Shown here one piece after another: positions 4,221 to 14,103 of a stretch of 39,437 nt of DNA. Each line of letters starts with the position of its first letter. The stretch's first letter is position 1. A program made the position numbers and the translations under genes. The notes under the pieces were generated by a model, which saw nothing but the letters and a program-made list of their open reading frames with translations, made no database searches and was not told where the DNA came from. Location of the stretch: the IMG/VR virus record IMGVR_UViG_2687453623_000006; one strand, 5' to 3'. Source of the stretch: a virus (lineage: Duplodnaviria; Heunggongvirae; Uroviricota; Caudoviricetes).

Positions 4221-4493
4221 TCAGTGTTTCCGGTCGACGGTGATGTGCAGGCCGCCTTCTGCAGTGGTTTCCATCCGGTACGGCACCTCATGCTCTGCCG
4301 TGTGGGTGAGTGTGTTCATCAGTACCTGCAGGGCAGCCTCCTTTCCGTTGGTCGCCACAATGGCCTGTGTGGCCATGCTGATTAGCGCCGTCAGGACGTG
4401 CTTCACATCGGTGAGGTCGCGGCATTCACACTCGTTGACATAGTGTTCAACAAGGGTTCGGGTGCGCTGTCGTGCTTCCTGTGGGGTAATCAT
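4221..4493 (-). CDS. hypothetical early protein (90 aa)
   Basis: ORF in the co-directional early gene string; start overlaps the upstream stop (ATGA-type coupling). Confidence 0.4.
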   Translation of the reverse strand: MITPQEARQRTRTLVEHYVNECECRDLTDVKHVLTALISMATQAIVATNGKEAALQVLMNTLTHTAEHEVPYRMETTAEGGLHITVDRKH

Positions 4494-4684
4494 TGCGCGT
4501 CCTCCCTGTCAGGGCGGGAGAATTCCATGACGGGCACGTCCGCCGAAAAATGCTGGCTGCAGTACGGGCAGACCAGGGTGACACGTACTGCAGGTATGTG
4601 ATACTTACCGGACATCACGGCGATGGCGCTGTGAAAACGCAGGGCTGTTATATCCCTCTCGCACTGAATACATTTAAATATCAT
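4490..4684 (-). CDS. small zinc-ribbon-like protein (64 aa)
   Basis: Two Cys pairs, CIQC and CPYC, spaced about 33 residues apart; GAGGAG upstream of the start. Confidence 0.4.
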   Translation of the reverse strand: MIFKCIQCERDITALRFHSAIAVMSGKYHIPAVRVTLVCPYCSQHFSADVPVMEFSRPDREDAQ

Positions 4685-8561: not shown

Positions 8562-9473
8562 TTATGCCTCCAGCCCGTTAATCTGTGGCGTCGGCTCAGT
8601 CAGCCATGAAGGCGCTGCATTGCCTGTTGGCTCGTCCGGCAGGTCAAATGTGGAGCGCAGGCTACGCGCTGTGCTTTCCAGTTGACAGACCAGGCCTGCC
8701 ATGAAGTCTCTGGGGGTATCAATCATGTTTTCAGCACAATATGCGCACAGCGTCTCAAAAGCGCTGGACAGTCGAACGGCGATGGCAGATTCCGCCTCAA
8801 CCGCTAACGCGGTCACTTCTGCCCGCAGTTTCTTCACCTCTTCATCAGGCTCAGGTGGCTGAATACGGGATTTCTTCTCCAGTCTGGTGGAGAGTGAGTC
8901 TATTTTTTCATTTTTGTCGGCGAGTACGCGCTGTTGTGCTGCGTTGGTTTCGCGCGCTTCGCGCAGGGCCTGACGCAATTCACGTACTGACATGCGATCA
9001 ACATCGTCAAGCGTCAGTCCGGCAACTGTGCCACCGTCGGCCAGTTCAGCAAGGTCGTCGTCATCTTCAGCAACAAGTTCAAATAATTTTGCCTTACCTA
9101 AAAGCGACAACGTTGTCGCTTTTGGCTCTAGTTTTGGTGAAAGGTATTTCAAAGATGCTTTCATCATTCGTTGTGCTGCGCGCACATGCAGACCAAGTTG
9201 TTCTTCTACAATTCCAACAAAGTCCCCGTGAGGTTCATTTTCTTTGAGAATAATAAGTCGTTTACCTGCTTCCAGCATGGCCTCAGCGCTCTGTGCCATA
9301 TAAAACCGAGCCTCATGAACTATGCGATCACGCTCATAGGGCTGACCATCGCCAAACTGCTGCATGATCTCCATACGATGCTGTGTCATGGCGTTCAGAC
9401 TGACATTGAGATCATCCGACAGCGGTACCTCGGCGTTCAGTTCAGTGTTAATCGGTGATTTGGTGCGTCCCAT
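8562..9473 (-). CDS. DUF3102-like phage protein with acidic/coiled-coil C-terminal half
   Basis: 303 aa; EARFYMAQSAEAMLEAGKRLIILKENEPHGDFVGIVEEQLGLHVRAAQRMMKAS resembles the DUF3102 core (HGxF/W ... AQRxM); directly upstream of transposase. Confidence 0.45.
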   Translation of the reverse strand: MGRTKSPINTELNAEVPLSDDLNVSLNAMTQHRMEIMQQFGDGQPYERDRIVHEARFYMAQSAEAMLEAGKRLIILKENEPHGDFVGIVEEQLGLHVRAAQRMMKASLKYLSPKLEPKATTLSLLGKAKLFELVAEDDDDLAELADGGTVAGLTLDDVDRMSVRELRQALREARETNAAQQRVLADKNEKIDSLSTRLEKKSRIQPPEPDEEVKKLRAEVTALAVEAESAIAVRLSSAFETLCAYCAENMIDTPRDFMAGLVCQLESTARSLRSTFDLPDEPTGNAAPSWLTEPTPQINGLEA

Positions 9474-9483
9474 TTATTACTCC

Positions 9484-9798
9484 TTACAAACGACTACCTG
9501 AAATGACACGTTGGTTGATTTCGTTAATGCGATCCTGTGCACGTGCCATCTCGTTACTGTGGGCCATAGCGATCTGCAGTAACTGGATGCCCGGCGCGAA
9601 ACGCCCGTTTTCCAGTTTCAGGGCCAACCCTTCTTCAATGAGGGTGTTGAGTGCCCGGTTGATGTTTGCCGGTGACTCGTGCAGTGCTGCCGCCAGTTCA
9701 CCGTTGGAAATACCGTTCAGGGCATGACCGCGCAGCGCTTTGAGTACCCGGAGGATGCGACTGCCGGAGCTTGAAACATTCGTCTTACTCATCTGCAT
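9484..9798 (-). CDS. winged-helix DNA-binding protein
   Basis: 104 aa; RILRVLKALRGHALNGISNGELAAALHESPANINRALNTLIEEGLA resembles an IclR/MarR-type N-terminal wHTH. Confidence 0.45.
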   Translation of the reverse strand: MQMSKTNVSSSGSRILRVLKALRGHALNGISNGELAAALHESPANINRALNTLIEEGLALKLENGRFAPGIQLLQIAMAHSNEMARAQDRINEINQRVISGSRL

Positions 9799-9844
9799 AC
9801 CTCTTTTGCGATATGTGATAACCTTTTACAAAGACTCAAAATCT

Positions 9845-10033
9845 TCAGGCTGCCTGAGCTGTTGATTTCAGCCCCAACTTCACGGCGATTTCATGGGATT
9901 TACCGTAACGGGCTTTGGTCTGCCCATTGAGAACGCGGTATACCTCATTGCGGTTGTAGCCGTTTTCTTCTGCCCAGCGGGTGAAAGTGATCCCGCGCTG
10001 GCGGAAGAGAGCTTTGACTTGTTCTGCAGTCAT
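9845..10033 (-). CDS. ner: Ner-like small DNA-binding regulator (Cro functional analogue)
   Basis: 62 aa; first gene of the leftward early operon, divergent from the repressor; ATG at 10033 with AAGGAG RBS; HTH-like GITFTRWAEENGYNRNEVYRVLNG. Confidence 0.55.
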   Translation of the reverse strand: MTAEQVKALFRQRGITFTRWAEENGYNRNEVYRVLNGQTKARYGKSHEIAVKLGLKSTAQAA

Positions 10034-10133
10034 CGTTGTCTCCTTTGTTGATGCAATGATGTTTGCCTTATGTGTGATAGATTATGGTGCAGATTACCTC
10101 ACCAGTCAACTTAAAGAGTGCAGAAAAACTCAC
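10034..10133. promoter_or_regulatory. divergent early/repressor promoter-operator region
   Basis: 100-bp AT-rich spacer between divergent ner-like and repressor starts; position equivalent to the Mu Pe/Pc operator region; individual sites not resolved. Confidence 0.4.
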
Positions 10134-10472
10134 ATGATCGGGTTACGTATTAAAGAAGAAAGAGAGCGTCTATCTCTTACACAGCAAGGGTTGGCTGATG
10201 CTATAGGTGTGGCAAAGAGAACTTTCATTGATTGGGAAAAAGATCGCACTTCTCCTACTGCAGTGCAGTTATCTGCACTATCAGAAATCGGTGTAGATAT
10301 TTTGTATGTAGTTACTGGGGTGCGGAGTCAGCCTGTTGTTGCACCTTATGTGTCACAAGAAAAGAAAGAGTTAATGGATGCATTCGACGAAATGAGCCCC
10401 GAACAACGGAGGGCAATTCTTGAGGTCGGCAAAGTCTTCATTCAACCCAAACCAAGCAAACTCGCAGGCTGA
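10134..10472 (+). CDS. XRE-family HTH repressor (lysogeny repressor candidate)
   Basis: Track ORF 9981..10472; HTH domain begins at the internal ATG 10134 (MIGLRIKEERERLSLTQQGLADAIGVAKRTFIDWEKDRTSPT); divergent from the early operon. Confidence 0.65.
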   Translation: MIGLRIKEERERLSLTQQGLADAIGVAKRTFIDWEKDRTSPTAVQLSALSEIGVDILYVVTGVRSQPVVAPYVSQEKKELMDAFDEMSPEQRRAILEVGKVFIQPKPSKLAG

Positions 10473-10557
10473 TTTTGACCTGGACACAAAGGACAGGTGG
10501 TTGATCTGGATGCTTTCAGAAAACATCGCCAGTGACATAGTGGAAGTTGTTTGGTTT

Positions 10558-10590
10558 ACCGGAAAGCATTGTGCTTTCCGGTTTTGTTTC
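10558..10590 (+). terminator. Rho-independent terminator downstream of the repressor
   Basis: Perfect 11-bp stem ACCGGAAAGCA/TGCTTTCCGGT with 3-nt loop followed by TTTTGTTTC. Confidence 0.5.
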
Positions 10591-11353
10591 AGAAGTTGCA
10601 GATTACCAGTTCACGGCGCGGCGTAGATTTCCCCGCCAGACTGTAGTTGATGTTCACTGTCTGTATGTTCAGTCCAGTGAACACCTCGCGCATCTGTGGG
10701 ATATCGTTCACCGAAATTATCATTTTTCCTCTGATGCACCGGGCCAGCTCTGCCAGCCGCGAGTAGTTCCCTTCAGGAAAATCCACACCATAGCCTTCCG
10801 TACCCAGGTACGGTGGGTCGCAGTAGAACAGTGTGTGCGGACGATCATAACGCTCAATGCACTGTTGCCAGTCCATGTGTTCTATGACTGTTCTGGAAAG
10901 CCGCAGGTGTGCTGCTGACAGTTCTTCTTCAATACGCAGCAGGTTGAAGCGTGGCGGGGATGTGGTGGAGGTACCGAAGCTGTGCTCTGCCACCTTGCCG
11001 CCAAACGCCTGCTTCTGAAGGTAGTAGAACCGTGCCGCACGCTGGATATCCGTCAGTGTTTCTTCCGGGGTGATCTGCAGCCATTTGTAGATCTGACGGC
11101 TGACCAGCGCCCATTTGAACTGGCGGACAAATTCTTCCAGGTGATGCTTTACCACCCGGTACAGATTCACCAGTTCACCGTTGATATCATTGATGACTTC
11201 GATCTTGCCGGGTGTCTTAAGAAAATAGAGCGCTGCTGCCCCACAAAACGGCTCCACATAACATTCATGCGCCGGAAACAGCGGCAGGATGTGTTTTGCC
11301 AGGCGACGTTTGCCACCAATCCATGGAACGATGGGTAATGTCTTCATTTTCAT
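10589..11353 (-). CDS. dam: Dam-family DNA N6-adenine methyltransferase (orphan)
   Basis: 254 aa; N-terminal WIGGKRRL, SAM-binding motif EPFCGAAALYF, catalytic motif DPPY; no adjacent restriction endonuclease. Confidence 0.8.
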   Translation of the reverse strand: MKMKTLPIVPWIGGKRRLAKHILPLFPAHECYVEPFCGAAALYFLKTPGKIEVINDINGELVNLYRVVKHHLEEFVRQFKWALVSRQIYKWLQITPEETLTDIQRAARFYYLQKQAFGGKVAEHSFGTSTTSPPRFNLLRIEEELSAAHLRLSRTVIEHMDWQQCIERYDRPHTLFYCDPPYLGTEGYGVDFPEGNYSRLAELARCIRGKMIISVNDIPQMREVFTGLNIQTVNINYSLAGKSTPRRELVICNF

Positions 11354-11544
11354 AATCTGTAAGCCTTTTACAATTATTAAAAATATGGCAGGCTAGTCTG
11401 GTCTCGCGAGACTGACTGAACCTCGGTCGGCTCACAGCCACTTCTGTGGGACGATGGCCAGCCCGGTGGGTCCGAAGCACCGGGCTGGTCGTTCTTTCAT
11501 GATGCGGCAGGGATAGTGGGATTTCTGTTAATGTGGTTTAGGGA

Positions 11545-11760
11545 TTATCCGGGGCGATTTTCTGACCTTATCCGGTCCAGGGCATAAGTAATACCTTCTG
11601 CAAAAACAGAAGTATCAAACTGCTTTTGTATTCCCTGAAAATGAAAAGCGGCACGACAGACACTCAGTTCTCCGCGATGTAACCGGATAATATCTTCCAG
11701 AACATTGTTCACTGCTTCAGCACGGCGCTGATGTTCTGTTAACGTTAATCGGGGATTCAT
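11545..11760 (-). CDS. hypothetical protein (71 aa)
   Basis: ATG at 11760 preceded by AAGGAG at good spacing; no recognisable motif. Confidence 0.4.
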   Translation of the reverse strand: MNPRLTLTEHQRRAEAVNNVLEDIIRLHRGELSVCRAAFHFQGIQKQFDTSVFAEGITYALDRIRSENRPG

Positions 11761-12163
11761 GATGCACTCCTTAAATGATGATTTTTATGCACTCACCGGC
11801 AAAATATTCTGCCGATTACTGAACACGCATCCGGCACCTCAGGTTTTGATTTATTCTGGTTTTTTCGATATCCCGGACCAGGTTGATCACGACCAGAAAA
11901 AGTGCCGGTATTTTATTGATACGCTGATATGGCTTCGGGATAACAGCTATATTCGTTACTCTCAGTTGCTGGCTGTGGGAGCGGCTGATGTCGTCCTCAC
12001 GGAAAAAACGCTCCGTCTGCTCAATGCCACGCCGACCCTTCTGCAGCCCCGGCCCGCACCATTTAAAGAGTCACTTCTGGATGCAGTAAAAACCGGTGAA
12101 AATGCAGTCATCGCTGAATGCGTATCCCGGATTATGCGTTACGTGTTTAATGAACGTAAGTGA
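11759..12163 (+). CDS. hypothetical protein (134 aa)
   Basis: Start codon overlaps the start of the divergent 71-aa ORF; GGGGA upstream; 3' end overlaps the convergent P-loop gene by 25 bp. Confidence 0.3.
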   Translation: MMHSLNDDFYALTGKIFCRLLNTHPAPQVLIYSGFFDIPDQVDHDQKKCRYFIDTLIWLRDNSYIRYSQLLAVGAADVVLTEKTLRLLNATPTLLQPRPAPFKESLLDAVKTGENAVIAECVSRIMRYVFNERK

Positions 12164-12882
12164 GGTTTATCCGCTGTCTGCATAATCCCGATAGCCAGTG
12201 CGAGGGGAAGTAATTCCGGGGAAACTCTTTCAAACAGCGACTCCCATTCTCCTCTCGCCATCACTCTGTCCAGCCCGCCCCCCAGTTGCATTTCAGCAAT
12301 CTTCCTGATTTCCCGGAACAACGCCGCTTTGATCTCTTCGTGCTCAGCTTTATTTTCCGGTGTCAGAATGTATTCGTCGAAGAACCGGGGAGGCTGGTTA
12401 ACGGGGAGCGTGTTCACCGGGATGTGTTCCTGTTTCCCGTACTTCGGGGCAGAAAAACATTCTGTTGGCTGACCGGTGAGTTTACGTAGCTCCTTCATGA
12501 GCAGCTCCTGATCGTAAACTGTCATCAGTGCCGCAATGGTGGCATGCAGTGCATCGGGCAGTATCCAGGGTTGCCGGCCCGTGGGGCATATAACATCCAG
12601 CAGCTCATTCGTCCGACAGATACGCTCCTCGCCGTATGACAACAGGCCCTGTCCCGTGTATTCCTCCAGCCTGATCACTGTGCCACCCCGTGGCTTCTGC
12701 CAGGTCGTCAGATCATCGCCACTCATACGCCGCTCATCATCTACGTCTGCAGCATCGACAATGACGCTGCCCCCGAATTCCTGTTTCACCACTTCCTCTA
12801 TCCGCGCCAATATGTAACTTTTACCGCTGCCCACAGGACCGGACACGGTGACAGTGATGACCGGATTCAGTGTCTGCGTCAT
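12139..12882 (-). CDS. P-loop NTPase of unknown function
   Basis: 247 aa; Walker A GPVGSGKS at residues 15-22, candidate Walker B VIVDAADVDDE; GAGGAG RBS; transcribed divergently from the late operon. Confidence 0.55.
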   Translation of the reverse strand: MTQTLNPVITVTVSGPVGSGKSYILARIEEVVKQEFGGSVIVDAADVDDERRMSGDDLTTWQKPRGGTVIRLEEYTGQGLLSYGEERICRTNELLDVICPTGRQPWILPDALHATIAALMTVYDQELLMKELRKLTGQPTECFSAPKYGKQEHIPVNTLPVNQPPRFFDEYILTPENKAEHEEIKAALFREIRKIAEMQLGGGLDRVMARGEWESLFERVSPELLPLALAIGIMQTADKPHLRSLNT

Positions 12883-13012
12883 ATCGTATTCTCCTCTGTG
12901 AATAATTCATCGTTTATCCTGCACATCCCGTATCCCCGGCTCTCTTAACGCGCTTTAAAATCCTTCGCGCCCTGTATTTGTGATGCTGTCTCCACCAGAC
13001 AAGGAGACACAC

Positions 13013-13363
13013 ATGAAAAACCTGAAAAAATTCATTCCCCCTGTTAAAAAACCTCGCCTCAGCGGCTGGCTGCTGACCTCAGTGCTGTTGCTGGGCACCA
13101 TCGCTCTGGTCTCGCCACAGCAGTTGCCTGTTGTGATCTACAAGCTGGCACTCATCACGCTGGCAGCAGTGCTGGGTTACTGGCTTGACCGTTCGCTCTT
13201 CCCCAAAGCCCGTCCCGGTCAGTACCTGAAACATGACGACAGGCTGATGGCTGATGGGCGTTTCCCGGTACAGACCGGCCTTCACCTGGTGTTTTCTGCT
13301 GCGTTAATCCGCCGTGCACTGATTGTTGCAGCGGTCTGTCTGGCTGTTGCGATGGGGCTTTAA
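13013..13363 (+). CDS. putative holin / lysis membrane protein
   Basis: Track ORF from GTG 12980; preferred ATG 13013 with AAGGAG RBS; three hydrophobic segments; immediately upstream of the endolysin. Confidence 0.45.
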   Translation: MKNLKKFIPPVKKPRLSGWLLTSVLLLGTIALVSPQQLPVVIYKLALITLAAVLGYWLDRSLFPKARPGQYLKHDDRLMADGRFPVQTGLHLVFSAALIRRALIVAAVCLAVAMGL

Positions 13364-13365
13364 TC

Positions 13366-14103
13366 ATGAACTGGCCGCAGATCACCTGGATTGTATGCAT
13401 GTCCCTGAAACTGGCTTTCGAAGCCTTTAGGGTCTTCATCAGAACCGAACGCCTGTCAGTCCGCGCCGGGACCTTTCTGGTTCATATGGCACGGGTATTC
13501 TTTGTCGCAATGTTGCTCTGGTGTGGCGGCTTCTTCAGTCAGGCCCGCGCAGCGCAGCCTCCGCAGGCAGCGCTGCAGTATCGCGATGATGTGATCCGTA
13601 ATGCCCGGCTTGAATGGGGACTGTCTGCGCCGGTGGCTGATTTCGCTGCGCAACTGCATCAGGAAAGCGGCTGGCGACCTGATGCGATCTCGCCGGTTGG
13701 CGCTCAGGGACTGGCGCAGTTCATGCCCGCCACCGCCGACTGGATAAGTCAGTTGATGCCGGGGCTTAACAGCCGTGAGCCATTTAATCCGGCATGGGCC
13801 ATCCGGGCGCTGGTCAGCTATGACCGCTGGCTGTGGCAGCGCGTCAGCGCCGCCAGTGACTGCGAGCGTATGGCCATGACACTGTCGGGCTATAACGGTG
13901 GTCTGGGCTGGGTACAGCGGGACAGGCGGCTTGCATCACAAAAAGGGCTGGACAGCACCCGCTGGTTTGGTCATGTCGCCACGGTGAATGCCGGACGCAG
14001 CACTGCCAGCTGGCGGGAGAACCGTCATTATCCCCAGCGCATCCTGTTCACGCTGGCCCCGCGTTATCTCTCATGGGGAGGGGCAAGCTGTGTGGGTACG
14101 TAA
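13366..14103 (+). CDS. lytic transglycosylase endolysin (SLT domain) with hydrophobic N-terminal SAR/signal-like segment
   Basis: SLT motif QLHQESGWRPDAISPVGAQGLAQFMPATA; hydrophobic MARVFFVAMLLWCGGFF upstream of the catalytic domain; true start may be the internal ATG at 13486. Confidence 0.75.
   Translation: MNWPQITWIVCMSLKLAFEAFRVFIRTERLSVRAGTFLVHMARVFFVAMLLWCGGFFSQARAAQPPQAALQYRDDVIRNARLEWGLSAPVADFAAQLHQESGWRPDAISPVGAQGLAQFMPATADWISQLMPGLNSREPFNPAWAIRALVSYDRWLWQRVSAASDCERMAMTLSGYNGGLGWVQRDRRLASQKGLDSTRWFGHVATVNAGRSTASWRENRHYPQRILFTLAPRYLSWGGASCVGT

Follow-up and report, generated by a model that had tools for sequence, protein, structure and literature searches.

A conserved, mobile two-gene prophage cassette with superimposed divergent start codons and a proposed excludon-like mode of expression

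In the Tn10/IS10 system, divergent promoters give rise to RNA-IN and RNA-OUT, two transcripts that are complementary over a Shine-Dalgarno (SD) sequence and a start codon and whose pairing blocks translation. The genes of acr-aca units are co-directional and occupy one operon with a strong promoter. Overlaps between divergent genes are the rarest class of gene overlap in bacteria and are usually blamed on annotation error, since start regions need promoter and ribosome-binding signals (PMC2174442); overlapping divergent transcription units have been described as excludons, for instance in Listeria (PMC12288877). Here, a divergent overlap was analyzed in a 39,437-nucleotide (nt) stretch of viral DNA (IMG/VR record IMGVR_UViG_2687453623_000006; hereafter, the window, at its full length), in which a minus-strand open reading frame (ORF) of 71 amino acids (aa) and a plus-strand ORF of 134 aa run head to head from superimposed start codons.

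Judged across the homologous loci compared, this overlap is demonstrably real, long kept in evolution, and unusual. By the same comparison, the pair is a conserved, horizontally mobile two-gene cassette that forms a moron-like insert of prophage operons and encodes a protein with a predicted winged-helix fold together with a small partner.

Superimposed starts of two conserved genes

The junction reads TCGGGGATTCATGATGCACTCCTTAAATG, with a start-codon overlap of 2 nt (Table 1). A previous sequence-only reading had placed the divergent starts at 11760 (71-aa ORF, minus strand) and 11759 (134-aa ORF, plus strand) and had assigned to each gene an SD-like sequence embedded in the coding region of the other. 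The coordinates were borne out by the sequence, the ORF list, and RefSeq, where both coding sequences (CDSs) are annotated with coordinates identical to those of the ORFs (WP_001069609.1 and WP_000972292.1), and both embedded motifs (AAGGAG and GGGGA) are present in the sequence as described. AAGGAG, the reverse complement of 11767-11772, lies 6 nt ahead of the minus-strand ATG. GGGGA is spaced 3 nt from the first plus-strand ATG and 6 nt from a second in-frame ATG at 11762-11764; of these two, the first, which is part of CATG, agrees with the N-terminal alignment of the family (Phe at residue 9).

The chance of finding a C before ATG together with 71 open codons on the opposite strand is roughly 0.25 x 0.03, or ~1% (authors' estimate), and among the loci compared the recurrence of the junction with an intact homologous minus-strand ORF exceeds chance. 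The same junction and an intact minus-strand ORF were found in 45/45 P2-type loci, in 10 BcepMu-type viral contigs, and in Serratia and Salmonella prophages. The Serratia-type BcepMu-like prophage encodes a 139/140-aa homolog (51-53% identity) and a 73-aa homolog (~29%) at the same CATGATG, and in the Salmonella BcepMu-like prophage the genes for a 147-aa homolog (30%) and a 69-aa partner likewise overlap by 2 nt. Searches of phage genomes with tblastn recovered ~30%-identical homologs in the P2-like phages Midge, ST147-VIM1phi7.1, and FSL SP-004, each of which has an annotated divergent 63-64-aa CDS with a 2-nt overlap; in the Midge record, a ribosome-binding site is marked for both genes. 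In 42 further P2-type viral contigs (76-99% identity), as well as in the 10 BcepMu-type contigs, CATG is invariant and the small ORF always open, and the CATG junction is also kept in the Desulfovibrio-type locus. Ratios of nonsynonymous to synonymous variation (pN/pS, Nei-Gojobori) were 0.31 for the small and 0.14 for the large gene in the P2-type set, and 0.49 and 0.47, respectively, in the BcepMu-type set. Variable columns cluster at third codon positions, and indels are multiples of three (63/64 aa; 71/73/74 aa).

Some records stand apart in their annotation or integrity. In the GenBank record of Escherichia phage PhiKM (PQ738613.1, locus 4259-4660), only the 71-aa CDS is annotated, yet the 134-aa ORF is intact. 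In the Desulfovibrio-type contigs L068/L069 (283-508), a 74-aa partner ORF was overlooked by the gene caller. The only disrupted copy seen is on an IMG/VR contig (L063, match at 2501), where the small ORF is intact and the large ORF is cut to 40 codons.

It had been suggested from the sequence alone that one of the two ORFs is spurious. On such an account, either the small ORF or the plus-strand ORF left out by the PhiKM annotators would be a chance open frame, and the locus would consist of a single gene and its upstream control region. The PhiKM record and the small ORF skipped in L068/L069 could be read in this way, as could the rarity of annotated divergent overlaps, which are often suspected to be errors (PMC2174442). 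However, both frames are open and under purifying selection over 25-99% identity (at the protein level, down to ~25-30%), the unannotated PhiKM ORF is intact, its 134-aa counterpart has a confident fold and belongs to a family of 198 clusters, and small-protein homologs recur at the same position in 21 loci, which makes a chance frame highly improbable. Homologs preserving only one frame, named in that reading as a refutation, were not what the comparison gave: both frames are kept. On this pattern of conservation, both ORFs are real protein-coding genes.

The embedded ribosome-binding signals are conserved along with the frames. Over the subfamilies, the consensus is GGAG-N5-10-CATG-N5-6-CTCC, with CATG invariant among the homologous loci compared. 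CTCC on the plus strand provides, when read on the other strand, a GGAG ahead of the small gene; within the conserved S-N-I motif near the N-terminus of the large protein, it is formed by a Ser TCC codon together with the C that closes the preceding codon. Conversely, a Pro or Ser codon among residues 3-5 of the small protein supplies the G-rich SD of the large gene; in homologous loci, the plus-strand ATG is preceded at 5-10 nt by GGAG, AGGGA, or AAGGGA equivalents.

A genome scan of species representatives with the Pseudomonas-type subfamily returned 53 loci, 47 of which were analyzed; a profile scan of genome contigs gave no relatives with a narrow alignment, and the broad alignment was too diverse for pattern scans. 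A minus-strand ORF of at least 60 aa starting at offset +1 (CATG) was present in 18/47 loci, and in 17 of those 18, mostly from Pseudomonas, it encodes a homolog of the window-type small protein. CTCC, CCTC, or TCCT occurs at +4..+19 in 16/18 loci with the partner ORF versus 3/29 without it (Fisher p = 8e-8, uncorrected for relatedness), the partnerless loci encoding the same serine by AGC, AGT, TCA, or TCT. Thus, as judged from codon usage, the embedded SD sequence is under selection, the anti-SD codon choice (CTCC) tracking the partner ORF. In eight Pseudomonas species, a 34-nt junction block is almost invariant, while the remaining alignment is ~76% identical with clear codon periodicity. 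Loci that lack the CATG arrangement have no detectable partner nearby, except for a Kushneria locus (L095) with a weaker partner-like match 33 nt upstream. In one P2-type locus (L074), the partner lies 4 nt away instead of at CATG.

A different arrangement was seen on a high-GC contig (L012, 1468-2429), where a 142-aa family member and a different 142-aa divergent neighbor are separated by an ordinary 104-nt divergent intergenic region, indicating that the compact CATG form is not universal in the winged-helix family.

In the window, the junction has a less stable predicted fold on either strand than shuffled controls have (z = +1.8 and +1.4), as expected of open initiation regions, and SD-sequestering hairpins are accordingly unsupported. 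No palindromic operator was found at the junction besides the GGAG...CTCC pair. A link to Dam methylation like that of Tn10 pIN was dropped because the junction contains no GATC.

Two short repeats of the junction region were also observed. The junction sequence TTCATGATGC is repeated exactly at 11496-11505, directly after a terminator hairpin, and the 24-nt stretch just upstream of the junction has a 75% identical copy at 11523-11546 (comparison of 11496-11546 with 11734-11766). These could be a relic of cassette recombination or chance matches; each is compatible with chance alone.

Table 1. Features of the cassette and its immediate surroundings in the window
Feature	Position	Strand	Description
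Small partner gene	11545..11760	-	71 aa, ATG start, hydrophilic; PHROG 4490 (wider partner family PHROG 25421); ORF and RefSeq CDS
Winged-helix-fold protein gene	11759..12163	+	134 aa, ATG start; PHROG 2266, large family without Pfam match
CATGATG junction	11758..11764		CAT at 11758-11760 is the minus-strand start; ATG at 11759-11761 is the plus-strand start
SD sequence AAGGAG of small gene	11767..11772	-	Within codons 3-5 (His-Ser-Leu) of winged-helix gene
SD-like sequence GGGGA of winged-helix gene	11751..11755	+	Within codons 2-4 (Asn-Pro-Arg) of small gene
247-aa gene	12139..12882	-	Convergent with winged-helix gene, 25-nt 3' overlap; PHROG 3787
Conserved structured element	11378..11500	+	Hairpin 11458-11488 and T-rich tract; left edge of variable cassette

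Mobility, orientation, and protein families of the cassette

The window corresponds to a nearly complete transposable E. coli prophage of the BcepMu-like group (Bcepmuvirus). The 900-bp segment surrounding the junction is present in 535/5426 complete E. coli genomes (~10%), chromosomal every time, and Escherichia phage PhiKM is 96.7% identical to region 10500-13400. The cassette differs in composition from its surroundings, with a GC content of 44-47% and a third-codon-position GC (GC3) of 33-50%, versus 55% and ~62% for the prophage. In KP12, a different gene takes the place of the cassette between the same flanks, and Phi06_2974 B shares the flanks of the window but not the cassette. The cassette is thus a swappable insert of atypical composition between conserved phage genes, as in phage morons.

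Homologous cassettes occupy diverse positions in phage genomes: the dam-holin gap of BcepMu-like prophages; the P2 A-Q hotspot, beside reverse-transcriptase, Fic, or DinI genes; the P2 baseplate-V/tail site; the interval between terminase gpA and a lambda-type portal in eight Pseudomonas species; and sites after tail tube FII, after Mu F, after P2 gpR, and after gpU. Across these contexts the orientation is strongly biased. The gene beyond the 3' end of the large gene is on the strand of the small gene in every context but FSL SP-004, and usually abuts or overlaps the stop of the large gene, so that the winged-helix gene forms an antisense island in a phage operon. The small gene is in operon orientation, on the downstream side of the winged-helix gene.

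These locations invite another explanation, a defense module of the toxin-antitoxin or abortive-infection style, in which one product would be toxic or antiviral, the other its antidote, and the pair would be kept for the benefit of the host. The P2 A-Q hotspot with its reverse-transcriptase and Fic genes would be an apt setting (hotspot concept, PMC9122126), yet such a pair is mentioned in neither of two P2/P4 hotspot papers. An AT-rich, swappable insert that diverges fast in one locus (the BcepMu-like versions of E. coli and Salmonella are 30% identical) would suit this role as well, but neither protein has a PADLOC, Pfam, or NCBIfam model or an evident toxin-like domain or membrane segment. 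Moreover, type II toxin-antitoxin pairs form co-directional operons, whereas the two genes here are on opposite strands and carry no recognizable toxin or antitoxin domain. A defense module of this kind is therefore considered rather improbable.

The 134-aa protein was modeled by AlphaFold2 on an 81-sequence alignment with a predicted local distance difference test score (pLDDT) of 91.3 and a predicted template modeling score (pTM) of 0.86; a run on a 4-sequence alignment gave an unusable model (pLDDT 46). The predicted structure comprises a winged-helix domain (residues ~1-90) followed by two C-terminal helices. As modeled, the fold is that of a winged helix, given the H1-S1-(H2)-H3-S2-S3 topology in a confident model and structural matches to winged-helix domains. 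An exhaustive profile search (E <= 1e-3) delineated a family of 198 clusters at the 50% identity level, mostly 125-150 aa in length. The family is mostly acidic (median pI 5.1), and DNA binding is for this reason not taken as established.

Database comparisons returned little for either protein. None of 81 sampled members of the large family matched a relevant Pfam family, and Foldseek searches of PDB and BFVD gave no significant match to the 134-aa model. The 71-aa and 134-aa proteins had no match in Pfam, NCBIfam, or PADLOC scans (zero matches in PADLOC-DB 2.0), and neither matched a defense, toxin, anti-CRISPR-associated, or regulator model. In PHROGs, both match only families of unknown function. 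The names given to either family in source databases are all 'hypothetical protein,' except for two automatic DUF2513 labels in UniProt. Nothing on the gene pair came from literature searches that covered DUF2513, both RefSeq accessions, E. coli prophages of the BcepMu type, and overlapping start codons.

Small-protein homologs occupy the same head-to-head position in each of the 21 loci mentioned above, and across cassettes the small partners span ~63-90 aa and the winged-helix proteins ~130-150 aa. In an hhalign comparison, the partner found at P2-type and Desulfovibrio-type loci had no detectable similarity to that of the window type (probability 0.15%), and two apparently unrelated small-protein families thus fill the same head-to-head slot. 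In a rough neighbor-joining tree, the large proteins group roughly by partner type. The P2-type partner profile also matched the coat protein of Pseudomonas phage PP7 in the PDB (E = 4e-5 for a tandem dimer, 0.056 for the monomer), a match judged probably spurious.

The 247-aa neighbor has a weak N-terminal P-loop-like segment (weak Pfam P-loop matches), a variable middle, and a C-terminal domain (residues 183-241) that is paralogous to the small partner (hhalign probability 94.7%, E = 6e-8). Its Serratia (89-aa) and Salmonella (258-aa) counterparts also carry the partner-like domain; the former consists of this domain alone, and the latter shares its N-terminus with the 247-aa protein (54% identity). 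PADLOC gave weak matches only for the 247-aa protein (E >= 0.0046).

In the left part of the local gene order, minus-strand early genes, genes for IclR-like and Ner-like helix-turn-helix (HTH) proteins, and a plus-strand HTH repressor gene are followed by a D12-class Dam methylase gene (minus, 10589-11353), the 71-aa ORF, the 134-aa ORF, and the 247-aa ORF. To the right of the latter are holin, SLT lysin, and late genes, all on the plus strand. Read along the minus strand, the order is 247-aa gene, antisense of the 134-aa gene, 71-aa gene, and dam. A strong plus-strand intrinsic terminator (11-bp stem and TTTTGTTT) is located at 10558-10582, 3' of the HTH repressor gene; the convergent dam gene has its stop codon ~7 nt away.

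Transcription signals and proposed expression

In the window and in four homologous loci, no consensus sigma-70 promoter was found closer than ~300 nt to the junction. Neither inspection by eye nor consensus scanning revealed sigma-70 promoters or leaderless starts in its vicinity that were consistent across homologs. A promoter-like site 2 nt upstream of the Salmonella start (L072) is wrongly placed to serve that start. Conservation is poor at 15-60 nt upstream of the plus-strand ATG, where indels also occur. In P2-type loci, synonymous sites are more conserved in the first ~20 codons of the plus-strand gene and the first ~10 codons of the small gene.

A serious rival to the expression scheme proposed below would equip both genes with their own promoters, nested in the first 20-150 nt of each other's coding sequence. 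The winged-helix protein would bind the junction and repress one or both genes, producing an autoregulated, compact regulator-payload unit with short complementary 5' leaders, similar to aca-acr or a repressor-moron pair. The extra synonymous-site conservation at both gene starts in P2-type loci is in line with such nested signals, whereas the five loci without a consensus promoter and the poorly conserved, indel-bearing stretch ahead of the plus-strand ATG are not. The fold is common to bacterial repressors of the Rrf2, IclR, MarR, and PadR types, and the Midge annotators chose the label 'putative transcriptional regulator,' but the family is acidic and the junction offers no palindromic operator other than GGAG...CTCC. 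The association of one winged-helix family with two unrelated small-protein families recalls variable payloads beside a conserved regulator; however, a self-contained unit does not predict the strong orientation bias relative to flanking operons. On balance, this arrangement is possible but doubtful.

In the window, the conserved structured element to the left of the cassette has a perfect 11-bp stem and a fold z-score of -3.87, and it is kept with stem-preserving changes in PhiKM, Serratia, Salmonella, and KP12, though the cassette genes differ. Its hairpin and T tract (11458-11497) should stop plus-strand transcription entering from the left; the element as a whole may act as a terminator or insulator of the plus strand or else represent a small RNA. 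Rfam contained no match for the element and no meaningful match for 9000-13500. A promoter-like site is located at 11347-11374, just upstream of the element. No terminator was found between the 134-aa and 247-aa genes of the window. In two P2-type loci, a canonical intrinsic terminator lies on the strand of the small gene, ~140 nt past the small ORF (L009, 174-198, minus; L010, 2134-2156, minus). The P2-type terminator falls inside an ORF annotated on the opposite strand in Midge (CPTMidge_047), and the strand of this 90-aa ORF is called differently in the L071 assembly.

Since the small gene is in line with the upstream phage operon, it may need no promoter of its own. An mRNA that carries either SD sequence must start inside the coding sequence of the partner or further away, so two mRNAs that include their embedded SD sequences would be complementary for at least ~30 nt around both starts. 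Nested promoters with antisense or mutual regulation, as suggested in the sequence-only reading, are thus retained in part: the mRNA complementarity follows from the sequence and a regulatory effect is plausible, but no consensus promoter is present at the junction and the small gene apparently needs none.

From the gene order and signals described above, we infer read-through, the promoter position, and mutual exclusion as follows. Polymerases reading through from the flanking phage operon would cross the antisense of the winged-helix gene and go on to transcribe the small gene. The winged-helix gene would be served by a nonconsensus, weak, or regulated promoter located rightward of the terminator at 11458-11497, either within the small gene or slightly past it. 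The two mRNAs would then be mutually antisense over both ribosome-binding sites, and transcriptional collision together with RNA duplex formation would lead to either/or, excludon-like expression. A two-gene cassette with superimposed starts, operon read-through of the small gene, and excludon-like reciprocity is the best overall explanation at hand, one in which confidence and doubt are evenly balanced.

Several points count against this read-through scheme. The FSL SP-004 neighbor is on the opposite strand, and in Salmonella L072 and Midge the gene on the left flank is not co-oriented with the small gene. Neither the Fisher test nor the orientation counts take account of shared ancestry. Under read-through, the small gene would be preceded by ~400 nt of antisense RNA that is untranslated and exposed to Rho-dependent termination unless the phage antiterminates. 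Consensus scans miss weak or activator-dependent promoters, and nested promoters for both genes are possible. In addition, any DNA binding or regulator role is putative for a modeled protein with generic fold matches in an acidic family.

With respect to function, the hotspot location, fast divergence, partner swapping, correlated phylogeny, and partner-like domain on the P-loop neighbor point to two products that act together. More speculatively, a lysogen would produce the winged-helix protein from its otherwise silent prophage, and the partner, made when the operon fires in lytic growth, would bind and neutralize this protein. This counteraction in the lytic phase of a protein made in the lysogen is speculation. 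An extended version, considered unlikely, is a self-neutralizing prophage module with a hard-wired switch. The winged-helix protein would be a lysogen effector (in exclusion, defense, or host modulation) and the partner an antidote made only upon lytic read-through, the CATG superposition would block co-production, and the partner-like domain of the neighbor would offer a second way to engage the winged-helix protein.

The cassette represents a natural test case of how two genes are expressed without intergenic DNA. Two sizeable Pfam-less families travel together through prophage accessory and defense hotspots, in ~10% of complete E. coli genomes and in many Pseudomonas, and bear a simple signature, CATG flanked by GGAG...CTCC, that is sometimes missed by gene callers. 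Either/or expression, if true, would constitute a compact design principle linking lysogeny and lytic growth.

Comparison with known systems

Among small prophage-associated winged-helix proteins, YjcQ and DUF2513 proteins are similar in kind, and UniProt calls two members of the large family DUF2513 domain-containing. In contrast, hmmscan of the window protein, the Serratia homolog, and the 81 members gave no DUF2513 or YjcQ match (PF10711/PF09639: none at E<=1 for the Serratia homolog or at E<=0.01 for the 81 members), and the YjcQ structure is among weak PDB matches only (profile E = 0.38; Foldseek E = 0.26). The protein is accordingly not assigned to either family.

The arrangement recalls acr-aca units in that a conserved HTH-type protein is combined with small, fast-changing, and even unrelated partners at moron positions, including Mu-like head gene clusters. 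It differs from them in being divergent rather than an operon and in having a large protein without an Aca or HTH Pfam match. With Tn10/IS10 the cassette would share transcript complementarity across an SD sequence and a start codon; however, RNA-OUT is noncoding, whereas conserved proteins are encoded here on both strands and two ribosome-binding sites are covered.

The old and tin genes, P2 lysogenic-conversion genes in variable hotspots, are examples of the inserts that the cassette resembles by position. Like such morons, it is an AT-rich, swappable insert, found in the P2 A-Q hotspot (PMC9122126) and in other moron slots, with one gene set against the lytic operon. A classic moron is a single gene with its own promoter and terminator; in contrast, the cassette is a fixed two-gene unit with overlapping starts, without a recognizable promoter or terminator of its own, and without a catalogued defense match.

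As in excludons, the genes are divergent neighbors. Described excludons involve overlapping transcripts, interference, RNase III cleavage, and mutually exclusive expression, and here transcript overlap would be predicted from gene position. In described cases, a long 5' or 3' untranslated region crosses a neighbor that keeps its intergenic region, whereas the cassette has no intergenic region: superposition extends to the start codons and both ribosome-binding sites, a geometry kept in distant homologs. The cassette is best filed as an overlapping-divergent (excludon-like) moron architecture built from two protein families without a Pfam match.

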